The notes below the pieces were generated by a model. The model saw only the letters and a list, made by a program, of their open reading frames with translations, ran no database searches and was not told where the DNA came from. Positions 1 to 3,934 of a stretch of DNA of 4,217 bases are shown here, in pieces (positions within the stretch are counted from its first letter, which is position 1; each line of letters begins with the position of its first letter). The position numbers and the translations under genes are program-made. This DNA is from a virus (lineage: Duplodnaviria; Heunggongvirae; Uroviricota; Caudoviricetes), in the IMG/VR virus record IMGVR_UViG_2671180846_000026, one strand, 5' to 3'.

Positions 1-95
1 ATATCCCGGTGCTTGTTCAGCTCCCGCAGCGCGGCGCAGACTCGCTCCCACTTCTGGACATGATTCTTCGCCCTACGCAGTTCGCGATTTGCCAT
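1..95 (-). CDS. Hypothetical protein, partial (continues beyond window start); N-terminus MANRELRRAKNHVQKWERVCAALRELNKHRD
   Basis: ATG at 95..93 on the minus strand opens a frame with no stop to the window edge. No clear SD upstream. The same frame stays open and uses good codons upstream to a TAA at 248..246, so this may instead be the shifted C-terminal part of the 113..700 gene. Not in the ORF track because it lacks a stop inside the window. Confidence 0.35.
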   Translation of the reverse strand, partial: MANRELRRAKNHVQKWERVCAALRELNKHRD

Positions 96-112
96 ATGCA
101 GCGATGGCAAAA

Positions 113-700
113 TCAAATCATCTTCTCGCGTTGCAGTAAACGATGGCAGCGACTGCACAATGTCCGCCACAGTTTCTGTTTTAATATCTTCCTGTGTTGC
201 ATCTTTCTGTACCGGTAACGAACACCGGCTGGCTGAGGAAAGGCTTTACCATCGGTTTCCGCTACCGATTCAACTTTCGGCTCTGCTGGTAAATTATCAC
301 CTGGTATGCAGTAACGAATTTTACCGTTCTGGTTTACGCGAATCAGACGACCTTTGCTGATTGCCATTGCCAGCGTTGAAGCAACTTTGCGGGATGTTGT
401 ACCGAACAGCGTAGCCAGTTCATCCGCCGTTTGTGGTCCGCGTTGTTCAATCGTCGCGGTTAAATCGCACTCTGAGATTTTCGCTTCTGTTGCCGTGGTG
501 GTTTCTTCTGGCGCTGGCTGTTCCTGCTGAACGTTGTTATCAGCCACACGCCAGGTGTATACGCTTTTATCAACGAAGCCAGCCTTTTTCAGTTCCCACA
601 GCTCGTTCAGTACTTCTTCACGACTGATATCAAGTCGCGCAGCCAGCTCTACCGACGTGGCTTTTCCCATCGCTTTCAGTGCGTCAAAAACAGTCTCCAT
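113..700 (-). CDS. Conserved lambdoid-prophage protein with N-terminal winged-helix-like segment (possibly DUF1627 family); C-terminal ~35 aa probably out of frame
   Basis: ATG at 700..698 with strong SD (GGAGG, 6-nt spacer) 33 nt downstream of the P-like stop. 195-codon ORF. N-terminus ([28 protein letters not shown]) resembles a wHTH. The basic tail ([29 protein letters not shown]) is rich in rare codons (AGA, AGG, ATA, TTA, CGG) while the alternate frame over 95..245 uses typical codons. Family name is from memory, unverified. Confidence 0.55.
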
Positions 701-733
701 AAATTTCCTCCCGGTAAAAAATCACTTCTCAAC

Positions 734-1399
734 TCAAACAAAACCAGCCGCTTTCCGGCGTTCATATTCCTGTTTCAGCAACTCAATTGGCGTTGGCCCC
801 GACGGGCGTTTGGGGGCCGCCAGTTGTCGCCGGACTGGCGGAACGCTCAGGCCGTTACTAACATGCTTTGCCCATTTCGTCAGTTGCCGTTCTGCAAGCC
901 GTTTTAATTCCCCTTCGGTCATCTGGCGCTCAATCCCCTTTGAACGCATCTCGAGGCAAATGTGATACAGCACAGGCTGAGACCACGGGTACTTATCACT
1001 TCCGTCGTATCGCCAGGACTCATTGCGCCAGCGGCGGTACTCCTCCATCACAGCATCCACCGTCAGACCGAATGGATTGGCTCCGCTTTTCGAAATCAGT
1101 GCCACAAACTCAGCCAGGTCCGGAGGCCATGTTTCACCCGCCCGGCAGCGGTCCATGCACTGGCGGCAGACCTGCCGGATTTGCTGCTCAGTCATCGCGC
1201 CAATCTGTGCAATCCAGAGCTTCGAAGGTGCGGCCCCGTTCTTCTGGATCCAGCGGTTCGAATAAACCACCCCCATGAGTTCCCACAGCTTCCAGGCCGT
1301 TTCCGTCGCTGATAAATCCGTTTTCACGTTCCCACTGCTCACGTGCTGCCCGAATTTCCTGAACTGCCCGTGATGCGGTGCCACCTGGTGCTGCTGCAT
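734..1399 (-). CDS. Replication protein P-like (lambda P family helicase loader)
   Basis: 221-codon ORF. ATG at 1399..1397 has an SD (AAGGGG, 6-nt spacer). C-terminal two-thirds resembles recalled lambda P (YPW motif, ELKR/ELRR, C-terminal KAAGFV vs KGASV region). Start is uncertain: in-frame ATGs at 1276 and 1195. The 1195 start forms ATGACTGA with the O-like stop, a coupling-type overlap; the 1399 start implies a 212-nt out-of-frame overlap with the O-like gene. Confidence 0.65.
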   Translation of the reverse strand: MQQHQVAPHHGQFRKFGQHVSSGNVKTDLSATETAWKLWELMGVVYSNRWIQKNGAAPSKLWIAQIGAMTEQQIRQVCRQCMDRCRAGETWPPDLAEFVALISKSGANPFGLTVDAVMEEYRRWRNESWRYDGSDKYPWSQPVLYHICLEMRSKGIERQMTEGELKRLAERQLTKWAKHVSNGLSVPPVRRQLAAPKRPSGPTPIELLKQEYERRKAAGFV

Positions 1400-2228
1400 G
1401 GTTTACCCCTTTGCTGACTGGTTTAACCTGCGCCCTGACGTGATTTACGTGACGGGCGAATTTCTGCTCCCACTGAATCTGCGTAAACACTTTCCCCTCC
1501 GCTGCCCAGTAGTCCCGGAAGGCGGCAAGTTCAGCAGGTGTAAATTCTGTCTCCGGCAAAGCCATCCCCCACAACGCAGCCCGTCGTCGAAAATCCCGTG
1601 ACGGATACCAGCTATCGCTCATCGGGAATTTTCCGATGGGTTCGCTCAGGCCATACAGGAATACAGGGGGGGCTGCCTGTAACGACAAAACTTCCTGCTC
1701 ACTGGTCGGAGCACTCTCGCGTGCGTTATGTGTGGGGTTTAGATCTTTGGGTTCCTTTGGGTTCCGTGATCCGTTTTTGGGTGTCTTTGATGGAAAATTT
1801 GGGTGTCTTTGGTTATTTTCCATGCAGCTAAGAGTTCTGTTTTTGGGTCTGTTTTGTGCTGAAACATAACCATTTTCGGTACTGTTTTTATTAACAGCAC
1901 CAATTTTACCCACCTTTAAAGACTCCCGTTTTTGGGTGTATTCAGGCTCGGCAACACTTTCTTCTACACCGATAAGTCGGTACACCACAATTTGCTTTGT
2001 TCTGCCTTTTCTCTCACCGGTATCAACAATTAACCCAATCTCCATCAGGTGTCGTAAGCTGTCCTGCACAGTCTTTTTGTTCAGTTCCGTTACTTCTGCC
2101 AGTGCAGATACAGACGGGTATGCACACAAATCGGCACCGCACATATCAGCAAGCCAGGTCAATACTGACTTACTGGATGAACTGCCGGTTTTCACCTTTT
2201 TAGCCCATCGTAGTGCATCGATACTCAT
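1188..2228 (-). CDS. Replication initiator, O-like (N-terminal HTH DNA-binding domain, low-complexity P/K/N-rich linker encoded by the iteron region, acidic C-terminal tail)
   Basis: ATG at 2228..2226 with SD (AGGGG, 5-nt spacer). The track's longer ORF begins at a TTG at 2303 with no support. N-terminus MSIDALRWAKKVK...LAEVTELNKKTVQDSLRHLMEIGLI is a typical phage replication-protein HTH. Sits between the cII-position gene and the P-like gene as in lambda O-P. Contains the iteron array. Stop TGA at 1190..1188. Confidence 0.7.
   Translation of the reverse strand: MSIDALRWAKKVKTGSSSSKSVLTWLADMCGADLCAYPSVSALAEVTELNKKTVQDSLRHLMEIGLIVDTGERKGRTKQIVVYRLIGVEESVAEPEYTQKRESLKVGKIGAVNKNSTENGYVSAQNRPKNRTLSCMENNQRHPNFPSKTPKNGSRNPKEPKDLNPTHNARESAPTSEQEVLSLQAAPPVFLYGLSEPIGKFPMSDSWYPSRDFRRRAALWGMALPETEFTPAELAAFRDYWAAEGKVFTQIQWEQKFARHVNHVRAQVKPVSKGVNHAAAPGGTASRAVQEIRAAREQWERENGFISDGNGLEAVGTHGGGLFEPLDPEERGRTFEALDCTDWRDD
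1745..1939. repeat. Iteron-like direct repeats plus AT-rich tract; putative phage origin of replication embedded in the O-like gene
   Basis: Core TTTGGGT at 1748, 1758, 1776, 1798, 1842 and 1931. Perfect tandem 10-mers CTTTGGGTTC at 1745..1754 and 1755..1764. Perfect 14-mers TTTGGGTGTCTTTG at 1776..1789 and 1798..1811 (22-bp period). AT-rich tract about 1860..1920. Same layout as the lambda ori inside gene O. Confidence 0.55.
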
Positions 2229-2672
2229 ACGAACCCCTGGCAGACATTTGTTTATCTGCAAAGTAATATTGGTATTGCTGACGATACGCGTGCTTGAAAG
2301 CAATAGCTTTTTCTATAAGCTCGTCAGTCTCACGTTCCACAACAACTGGATCCGCAAAAAGCAGCCCGGACTCCACCACATCGCCATATTCTTTGTTTAA
2401 CCCGGCGATCATGTACGTAATGCTTTTTCCGTCAGTAATTTCACAATACAATCTGAAATCGCTGATCCGGATAGCCTCCATAATTGCCGGAATCAGCGCC
2501 GTGAATTTGTCACGCTTATCTCTGGTGTCGATAGCTTTCCAGCGTTCGAATATCTTCACCCGGTTAACGCCCAGCGCCCGTTGATCAACCTCGCCATCAT
2601 TAAACGTGACGCGTTGAACATCGATGTTCGGGCGTTCTTTCAGAGCCCAGAATGCTTCCGTGATTAATATCG
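2200..2672 (-). CDS. cII-position regulatory protein (possibly CP76/YdaT-like CII analogue); 5' end lies in the N-run
   Basis: Open, well-codon-adapted frame from the N-run to stop TAA at 2202..2200 (157 codons visible). No ATG, GTG or TTG near its 5' end, so the start must lie in or before the masked stretch. Position between Cro-like and O-like genes matches lambda cII. Family assignment is by position and recollection. Confidence 0.45.
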
Positions 2673-2722
2673 NNNNNNNNNNNNNNNNNNNNNNNNNNNN
2701 NNNNNNNNNNNNNNNNNNNNNN
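2673..2722. other. Run of 50 N (assembly gap or masked sequence)
   Basis: Directly visible. Interrupts the minus-strand coding region between the Cro-like N-terminus and the cII-position ORF, so the track's 228-aa read-through ORF (2200..2886) is partly an artefact of translating N. Confidence 0.99.
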
Positions 2723-2886
2723 TTGGGGTCGTACTGAAGTTCCCCGCCGGATGCCTCTTGCAGGCGCATCGCGCGACCTTCAGGAACCAGTTCCCCCCAT
2801 GCAGCAACGCTTGCCAGCCTAACTCCTGCGACATTGGCAAGCTTTGTTTTGCTGCCAAAAAACGCTATAGCATCAATTTTCAACAT
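2723..2886 (-). CDS. Cro-like HTH regulator (DicC/Cro family), 3' end hidden in the N-run
   Basis: ATG at 2886..2884 with SD (AAGGGG, 6-nt spacer). Translation MLKIDAIAFFGSKTKLANVAGVRLASVAAWGELVPEGRAMRLQEASGGELQYDP has an HTH (GSKTKLANVAGVRLASVAAW) and resembles recalled DicC. Divergent from the repressor gene across a 76-bp region. Confidence 0.65.
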
Positions 2887-2894
2887 ATCGAACC

Positions 2895-2912
2895 CCTTAG
2901 ATTTTCCTAAGG
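2895..2912. promoter_or_regulatory. Operator-like site 1 (perfect inverted repeat CCTTAG-ATTTTC-CTAAGG)
   Basis: 6-bp perfect inverted repeat with 6-bp spacer. Overlaps the predicted Cro-like SD and transcript start. Shares CTTAG-N-TTTT-N-CTA with sites 2, 3 and 4. Confidence 0.5.
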
Positions 2913-2941
2913 AAACTAGATCGTAGAGAAACCTAAGTCAA
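2913..2941 (-). promoter_or_regulatory. Putative sigma70 promoter for the Cro-like early operon (pR analogue)
   Basis: Minus-strand -35 TTGACT (plus 2936..2941), 17-nt spacer, -10 TAGTTT (plus 2913..2918). Predicted start near 2906 gives a ~20-nt leader carrying the SD. Confidence 0.4.
2921..2938. promoter_or_regulatory. Operator-like site 2 (18-mer; reverse complement ACTTAGGTTTCTCTACGA)
   Basis: 15/18 identical to site 3 when reverse-complemented. Lies in the spacer/-35 of the pR-like promoter and over the -35 of the pRM-like promoter. Confidence 0.5.
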
Positions 2942-2954
2942 GAAAAATTAGAAT
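2926..2954 (+). promoter_or_regulatory. Putative promoter for the repressor gene (pRM analogue), possibly giving a leaderless or near-leaderless mRNA
   Basis: -10-like TAGAAT at 2949..2954 ends 8 nt before the ATG at 2963. No SD before the ATG. Weak -35 (GAGAAA, 2926..2931) as in activator-dependent lambda pRM. Confidence 0.3.
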
Positions 2955-2962
2955 TACCTAAT

Positions 2963-3370
2963 ATGAAAAACGAAACCTTCGGTGCTCGCCTCTTATACAG
3001 GCGAAAAAAATTAAAACTGTCTCAGGCCGCATTAGGTAAGCTGGTCAAAGTGGCTCACGTAACAATTTCTCAATGGGAAAGAGATGAAACACAGCCAGCG
3101 GGGAAGAGATTATTCGCACTGAGCCAGGCGCTTCAGTGCTCGCCGACTTGGCTTCTTTTTGGAGATGAAGATAAGCAACCAGGCGAACCGATCCCAGATA
3201 ATCAGCCAGTCAATCTGACAGAAGATCAAAAAGAGTTGCTTCAACTGTTCGACGCACTGCCTGAGTCAGAGCAAAAGGCTCTGTTGTCAGAGATGCGTGC
3301 TCGAGTTGAGAATTTCAACAAACTTTTTGAAGAACTACTCAAAGCTCGCAAAAGAAGCGCAAATAAATAA
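2963..3370 (+). CDS. dicA: HTH-type prophage repressor, DicA-like (XRE-family HTH, no LexA-like S24 peptidase domain)
   Basis: 135-aa ORF, stop TAA at 3368..3370. HTH (LSQAALGKLVKVAHVTISQWERDE) and C-terminal segment (CSPTWLLFGDEDKQP...LPESEQ...EMRARVENFNKLFEELLKARKR) closely resemble recalled E. coli Qin-prophage DicA (also 135 aa), roughly 60% identical by eye. A homologue rather than K-12 dicA itself; symbol denotes family. Confidence 0.8.
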   Translation: MKNETFGARLLYRRKKLKLSQAALGKLVKVAHVTISQWERDETQPAGKRLFALSQALQCSPTWLLFGDEDKQPGEPIPDNQPVNLTEDQKELLQLFDALPESEQKALLSEMRARVENFNKLFEELLKARKRSANK

Positions 3371-3404
3371 CCCCCCTTTTTTTCGCAACTCTCTGTAATA
3401 AAAA

Positions 3405-3433
3405 GCACAAACTTTCAAATACTTGTGTTTTTT
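3405..3433 (+). terminator. Weak candidate intrinsic terminator downstream of the repressor gene
   Basis: Stem GCACAA (3405..3410) pairs with TTGTGT (3423..3428), five Watson-Crick pairs plus one G-T, 12-nt loop, followed by a T-run to 3433. AT-rich and weak. Confidence 0.2.
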
Positions 3434-3443
3434 ACATCAAGAA

Positions 3444-3461
3444 GCTTAGGTTTTTCTACGC
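3444..3461. promoter_or_regulatory. Operator-like site 3 (GCTTAGGTTTTTCTACGC)
   Basis: 14/18 identical to site 1 and 15/18 to reverse-complemented site 2. Immediately upstream of the -35 of the downstream promoter. Confidence 0.5.
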
Positions 3462-3468
3462 AAAAAGC

Positions 3469-3498
3469 TTGACCATAACTCTTAGGCTATTCTAAATT
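3469..3498 (+). promoter_or_regulatory. Putative sigma70 promoter for the downstream plus-strand operon (pL / dicBp analogue)
   Basis: -35 TTGACC (3469..3474), 18-nt spacer, -10 TAAATT (3493..3498). Flanked and overlapped by operator-like sites 3 and 4. Sits about 80 nt upstream of the 3578 start. Confidence 0.45.
3480..3497. promoter_or_regulatory. Operator-like site 4 (TCTTAGGCTATTCTAAAT), degenerate copy
   Basis: 12/18 match to site 3 including the CTTAGG half-site. Overlaps the spacer and -10 of the pL-like promoter. Confidence 0.35.
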
Positions 3499-3510
3499 CT
3501 ACTCATCAAG

Positions 3511-3524
3511 ACACCGCACGGTGT
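3511..3524. promoter_or_regulatory. 14-bp perfect palindrome ACACCG-CA-CGGTGT in the predicted 5' leader of the 3578 ORF
   Basis: Perfect inverted repeat seen directly. Just downstream of the predicted transcript start. Unrelated in sequence to the CTTAGG operator motif. Confidence 0.35.
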
Positions 3525-3577
3525 TCTCAGCAAACAGTTCCGCTACCCGGCGTTAAGGGGAAGCAGAGGATTTCTCA

Positions 3578-3934
3578 GTGGGCGAAGTCAAACATCAGAA
3601 TGGAAGGCGTCCAGGGATCAGCAAAGAAACAGCGATGGCGCTTTATATTGATATCAGCGCCATTGCCGGACAGGTAAGAATTATCAGAGCGGTAACTAAG
3701 CGGTATGCGCCTTTACTTCAGAAAGTCTCTGGTGAGTGCACCGAAGATATTGTCAACGATTTCGTCATCAAACTGCGAGGACTCATCTTCAGTTACAAGG
3801 TGACCACAATTTTTGCAGATGGCTCCCGCGAAACTGTCAGAGCCCTGCGGCTTAAAGGATGTGTCAAAGACTTAGCCACCACATTCTGGGCAAGAAAACT
3901 TGATTGTATTCATAACCAATTTCCTCTCGAGTAA
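3578..3934 (+). CDS. Hypothetical protein (118 aa from GTG; 99 aa if ATG at 3635), first gene of the putative repressor-controlled early-left operon
   Basis: Only long ORF in either strand over 3371..4005. GTG at 3578 preceded by AGAGGA with 7-nt spacer. Contains several rare Arg/Gly codons (AGA x4, AGG, GGA), typical of acquired genes. I do not recognise the protein. Confidence 0.5.
   Translation: MGEVKHQNGRRPGISKETAMALYIDISAIAGQVRIIRAVTKRYAPLLQKVSGECTEDIVNDFVIKLRGLIFSYKVTTIFADGSRETVRALRLKGCVKDLATTFWARKLDCIHNQFPLE

Follow-up and report, generated by a model that had tools for sequence, protein, structure and literature searches.

The minus-strand open reading frame (ORF) at 113..700 of the stretch analysed here is almost certainly a gene of the DUF1627/YdaW family that was broken by a one-base deletion in one E. 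coli lineage. The stretch, called the window below, is 4217 bases long and covers the early part of a lambdoid prophage, with its immunity and replication genes. A single G of the gene strand has been lost after codon 160, between window positions 220 and 221; translation therefore quits the native frame, reads 35 missense codons and stops at 115..113, giving a product of 195 aa and not of 244 aa. The C-terminal 84 codons survive undegraded in the other frame, and it is because they persist there that this alternate frame looks like good protein. The features of the locus are as follows.

707..712, minus strand: Shine-Dalgarno sequence GGGAGG, 6 nt 5' of the ATG at 700
221..700, minus strand: native N-terminal 160 codons of the DUF1627/YdaW-family gene; ATG at 700..698, codon 160 is GTT at 223..221
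246..248, minus strand: TAA that closes the alternate frame upstream
211..229, minus strand: palindromic arms GCCGGT ... ACCGGT (gene strand; the CCGGT repeat) flanking the deletion
220..221, minus strand: site of the one-base deletion; the gene strand reads GGTGTT G CGTTACC in intact alleles and lacks the G in the window
113..220, minus strand: 35 missense codons read out of frame, up to the premature TGA at 115..113
1..218, minus strand: C-terminal coding part (L162 to D233 of the 244-aa intact protein) in its original frame, no longer translated
203..206, minus strand: A_AAG, in the phase that fits a -1 slip into the original frame; the overlap zone holds no second motif of this kind

Two reading frames at the 3' end of the gene

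The 195-aa product of 113..700 (minus strand) consists of 160 native residues and 35 residues read out of frame. A sequence-only reading of the window had reported a switch of frame near the 3' end of this gene. The switch is real and was pinned to one missing base between positions 220 and 221. The same reading had described the last ~35 residues as a basic, Cys/Trp-rich tail, and the composition agreed with this: lysine and arginine made up 37% of the tail versus 12% of the first 160 residues, while cysteine, tryptophan and histidine made up 14% versus 2.5%. It had also stated that the tail was built from rare codons, which was only partly the case. Codons that are rare in E. coli (AGA, AGG, ATA and, twice, CGG) accounted for 5 of the 35 tail codons (14%) and for 2 of the 160 native codons. 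However, they also occurred at 5 of the 72 codons of the alternate frame, so that the contrast between the tail and the alternate frame is modest and smaller than had been implied.

The alternate frame was found open from the TAA at 248..246 to the window start, with the peptide that had been quoted for it; it seems to open at 245 because this TAA closes it upstream. On the O26 chromosome the original C-terminal frame runs 33 nt past the window start to its true TGA. As had been claimed, no start codon with a good Shine-Dalgarno sequence was present among those checked in the alternate frame (GTG 170, GTG 158, TTG 116, TTG 110 and ATG 95). The best match of these starts to AGGAGG was 4/6, and ATG 95 had only 1/6.

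Family assignment and homologues

Both frames matched Pfam PF07789 (DUF1627) far above its gathering score of 28.1 bits. Profile positions 1-82 were matched by residues 84-165 of the annotated frame (144.7 bits) and positions 77-150 by the alternate frame (146 bits). The DUF1627 profile is split over two frames, and therefore one family spans both, the break falling near profile positions 77-82. Furthermore, phrog_630, a family of unknown function, matched the reconstructed protein over positions 1-242 of 244.

The reconstructed 244-aa sequence was searched against 5.8 billion proteins (E <= 1e-5), and 2724 clusters were obtained. The best 120 of the 2724 were nearly all 240-257 aa in length; 118 of these 120 covered at least 92% of the reconstructed protein, both halves included, and the other two were partial entries. 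In a 26-row alignment, all homologues read on as ...GVALPVQ(E/K)(A/D)ATQEDIK..., and only the window product leaves them after ...PQPAGV. The C-terminal block LPSLHMANRELRRAKNHVQKWERVCAALRELNKHRD was nearly invariant in the same alignment. Thus, alignment to intact homologues, the check that had been suggested along with the sequence-only reading, revealed a single-ORF protein that spans both frames. A member of the family is a single polypeptide of ~245-255 aa with a wHTH, a DUF1627 core and a C-terminal helix, whereas the window ORF ends at 195 aa with 35 unrelated C-terminal residues. Because of this difference in length from its homologues, the locus is regarded as a disrupted DUF1627 member, that is, a pseudogene.

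These results bear directly on the other explanation that had been offered for the two frames, a separate downstream gene that overlaps the first extensively, for example one encoding a protein MANRELRR... from ATG 95. As such a gene would require, the alternate frame has no stop over 245 nt of the window and a protein-like composition. However, the peptide it encodes is the C-terminal half of the same Pfam family and, in the aligned homologues, is contiguous with the N-terminal half in one ORF; its candidate starts are without a Shine-Dalgarno sequence, and neither RefSeq nor the phage records annotate a gene there. The outcome that had been named as decisive in favor of two genes, homologues with a conserved basic tail together with separate MANRELRR proteins, did not appear: the basic tail was the C-terminus of 0 of 25 aligned homologues, and no stand-alone protein starting with MANRELRR was seen among the best 120 of the 2724 clusters. 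We therefore give the overlapping gene next to no credence and retain one broken DUF1627 gene.

In the literature on DUF1627 and ydaW, no functional characterization was found beyond a listing as predicted transcription factor and a match in a screen for blockers of a retron toxin. One listing of predicted E. coli transcription factors includes YdaW among those of unknown function and notes that its length varies from strain to strain (PMC9308461). In an overexpression screen, ydaW of the Rac prophage was identified as a blocker of RcaT, the toxin of retron-Sen2 (bioRxiv 10.1101/2020.06.22.160242). In prophages, DUF1627 genes were also reported to be conserved next to the PasA/PasC sRNA loci (bioRxiv 10.64898/2026.05.13.724894).

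The one-base deletion

Megablast against complete E. coli genomes and phage records recovered alleles that were 99.7-99.9% identical to that of the window and exceeded it by one base (721 versus 720 nt). An intact CDS of 735 nt is annotated for the gene both in the Stx2a-phage/PPompW_14040 record (LC567818) and in O157:H7 LSU61 (BCI48946.1, WP_000450692.1). When the 3' 341 nt of the O26 allele were aligned with three longer alleles, 341 of the 342 columns were identical and the sole gap, at column 81, was a single nucleotide at the frame switch. The intact alleles read GGTGTTGCGTTACC at this site and the window reads GGTGTT-CGTTACC; viewed on the plus strand, a C is missing between positions 220 and 221. 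The missing G lies outside any homopolymer or repeat, and the window product diverges from the intact 244-aa protein from residue 161 onward. No further decay was observed 3' of the break, where the 341 nt were identical to those of intact alleles, and the deletion is therefore either recent or the remnant has not yet begun to drift.

If the window carried a sequencing or assembly error, the true sequence would have the extra G and the gene would be intact. Single-base indels are common in assemblies, and the run of 50 N at 2673..2722 means that the source may be a draft or masked assembly. However, indel errors concentrate in homopolymers and the deletion site is not one; moreover, 109 independent complete genomes share the deletion, among them O26:H11 11368 and many assemblies from CDC, USDA and Japan. 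These genomes were recovered with a 70-nt query centred on the site, to which they match exactly. A further 498 records matched the query at 95-99% identity; the sampled rows of this band and of more divergent alleles were all one base longer than the query and thus have the extra base. Since the exact allele occurs in 109 complete genomes, the deletion is taken as an inherited mutation and not a read error, and the lesion is called frameshifted by PGAP as well; an error in the window is highly improbable. The deletion is thus clonally inherited and shared by one strain group that includes O26:H11.

Regarding the origin of the lesion, a short direct repeat of CCGGT had been noticed near the switch. 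Its two copies do lie on either side of the switch (228..224 and 216..212 on the gene strand), although a repeated 5-mer is not beyond chance. The hairpin that the arms could form is a weak one of 6 bp (-4.6 kcal/mol, z = -1.36), which is not significant. Slippage between the CCGGT copies was considered as the cause of the deletion and rejected, as the lost G lies in the unique spacer, outside repeat and homopolymer.

Two overlapping frames could also be expected if the locus were a functional recoding site, at which a programmed -1 ribosomal frameshift or transcriptional slippage would yield both a short and a full-length product. A -1 shift would bring back the original frame, and one A_AAG stands in the right phase at 206..203, 14 nt past the deletion. 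However, no slippery heptamer of the X_XXY_YYZ type was present in the overlap of the frames, where the bare A_AAG stands alone; the sole heptamer in the gene (GGGAAAA, gene position 33) lies 450 nt upstream. No SD-like stimulator precedes the A_AAG, and the hairpin at the site does not reach significance. Whereas a programmed frameshift is conserved in divergent homologues, the two-frame layout seen here was confined to one identical allele; all other inspected alleles and aligned homologues had a single frame. Recoding as a function of this locus is thus very improbable, and an inherited deletion in a DUF1627 gene remains our reading. We consider it very unlikely, though conceivable, that low-level -1 slippage of tRNA-Lys at the A_AAG (206..203) yields a near-full-length protein, so that the deletion allele would not be fully dead. 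If this were true, the product would differ from the intact protein in ~6 residues of the predicted disordered linker, and the O26 lineage would make mostly a truncated protein with two winged helices plus a trace of full-length DUF1627 protein.

Prophage context and annotation of the locus

Positions 1..2672 of the window matched E. coli O26:H11 str. 11368 (NC_013361.1, ~1.746-1.753 Mb) at 100%, and positions 2723..3684 differed from it by one base. This difference is an A/G at position 3680, within the hypothetical gene WP_001240336.1 (window ~3635..3934, plus strand). Taken with the run of N further left, it shows that the window stems from a close relative of strain 11368 rather than from the record of that strain. 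The minus-strand genes annotated by RefSeq in the O26 locus encode a Cro/CI-family regulator, a YdaT-family protein, a DnaT-like ssDNA-binding protein (O-analogue), replication protein P and the DUF1627 protein. In this PPompW-like lambdoid prophage, the DUF1627 gene directly follows the replication genes, which encode the DnaT-like O-analogue and P; such an early location just after the replication genes is that of the family, whose genes come after P or, in a Rac-like element, after ydaV. The early region of the window was 99.9% identical to that of the PPompW prophages of O145:H28. PPompW prophages are widespread lambda-like prophages whose early regions are relatively conserved (Nakamura et al., bioRxiv 10.1101/2020.11.04.367953). 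In the same study, they were induced by mitomycin C and excised, and packaged genomes were not detected (bioRxiv 10.1101/2020.11.04.367953). As is typical of lambdoid prophages in STEC, the O26 prophage also shows cargo and decay downstream of the replication genes, namely the type I toxin gene hokD, an adhesin gene of the AcfC family (paa) and a fimbrial pseudogene with a frameshift.

Several observations concern the window itself. The run of 50 N at 2673..2722 replaces 126 nt of the O26:H11 11368 sequence, and window coordinates beyond it are offset by 76 nt relative to that reference. The YdaT-family gene has its 5' end in the replaced stretch, and the Cro/CI-family gene its 3' end; the 228-aa ORF at 2200..2886 (minus strand) is therefore an artefact that joins two genes across the run of N. 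The mechanically called ORFs 734..1399 and 1188..2303 (both minus strand) exceed the annotated genes in length. Replication protein P is annotated at 734..1195 and the DnaT-like protein at 1188..2228, with an overlap of 8 nt, and the upstream extensions of the two ORFs are probably not translated. A scan of the whole window against Rfam gave no match at gathering thresholds.

The frameshift at this locus is already known. RefSeq (PGAP) carries ECO26_RS09385, window -33..700, as a pseudogene named 'DUF1627 domain-containing protein, frameshifted'. Of the two readings that had been proposed from the sequence, a frameshifted pseudogene is the one that has stood: it agrees with the split PF07789 match, the one-base difference at 220|221, the single-protein family and the RefSeq entry. 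The extensively overlapping downstream gene has not, given 0 of 25 homologues with the basic tail, no MANRELRR protein and no start with a Shine-Dalgarno sequence. The correct annotation of the 195-aa ORF is hence a frameshifted DUF1627 pseudogene and not an intact gene, and no gene of its own should be annotated in the alternate frame. Beyond correct annotation the importance of the lesion is little. The 1-nt deletion can be used as a lineage marker.

Predicted domains and consequences of the truncation

The intact protein was modelled with AlphaFold2 from a shallow alignment of 24 sequences, and the model was of low confidence (mean pLDDT 53.9, pTM 0.24). It contains an N-terminal winged helix (residues 1-51, pLDDT ~78), a second helical/winged module (77-130, pLDDT ~50), an unstructured linker (131-190) and, downstream of the break, a long C-terminal helix (193-243, pLDDT 73-88). 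Sub-threshold matches in Pfam/NCBIfam agreed with the model, with an HTH of the ArsR/MarR/TrmB type at residues 2-48 and FeoC at 80-126; other sub-threshold matches for the N-terminal part were Pfam HTH_20, MarR and TrmB. NCBIfam gave nothing beyond sub-threshold ArsR/MntR-type HTH matches. Among solved structures, none was significantly related to the DUF1627 family, the best match being FeoC (E = 0.26).

On this model, the truncated product would keep both predicted winged-helix domains, which are putatively DNA-binding, and would lose the conserved C-terminal helix (aa 193-243) together with a portion of the linker. Long C-terminal helices commonly mediate oligomerization or partner binding. 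The helix predicted here is probably such an oligomerization or partner-binding element, and for that reason the truncated protein is most likely inactive or altered. A second consequence may concern the gene that follows. A hypothetical ORF of 54 codons (WP_001505071.1, window -194..-30, minus strand) lies just outside the window, and the TGA of the intact DUF1627 gene overlaps its ATG (ATGA). Termination 146 nt upstream may weaken translational coupling to this ORF.

Comparison with other alleles and known systems

The locus resembles known sites of programmed -1 frameshifting, such as the A_AAA_AAG of dnaX and the G/GT tail-chaperone genes of phages, in that two frames overlap and the downstream part is in the -1 frame. 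Unlike these, it has no slippery heptamer, stimulatory element or conserved arrangement, and it is hence a mutation and not a recoding signal.

YdaW of the K-12 Rac prophage belongs to the same family, as judged from strong Pfam and PHROG matches, and its gene occupies the same place directly after the prophage replication genes. Both share an N-terminal winged helix of the MarR/ArsR-like type. However, the window allele differs from the YdaW family in being frameshifted after codon 160 and in lacking the C-terminal 84 residues. K-12 ydaW itself aligned over the first 458 nt of the query only, and this copy appears to have been shortened by a different event.

Much closer is the allele WP_000450692.1/BCI48946.1 of the PPompW prophages of O145:H28 and of O157:H7 LSU61, whose DNA is 99.9% identical to that of the window. 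It has the same flanks, replication protein P upstream and the 54-aa ORF WP_001505071.1 downstream, but, unlike the window allele, it retains the G and codes for all 244 aa. In the inspected PPompW phage records and in O157:H7 LSU61, the gene is intact. The allele WP_077744273.1, found in the typical O157:H7 strains RIMD 0509939 and ATCC 43890, has the same prophage context, is 99.7% identical and is also damaged, though by a lesion of its own: codon 18 is changed from GAG to TAG (E18*, window 649), while the site at 220|221 is intact, and the product called by PGAP, from a start further downstream, has 226 aa. Over a stretch of 70 nt, one mismatch was seen in many O157:H7 genomes, which may be this change. 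Near-identical copies of the gene have thus been inactivated independently in the two lineages examined, by the frameshift of the O26:H11 type and by E18* in two typical O157:H7 strains, which suggests that neither the resident prophage nor its host needs the gene.
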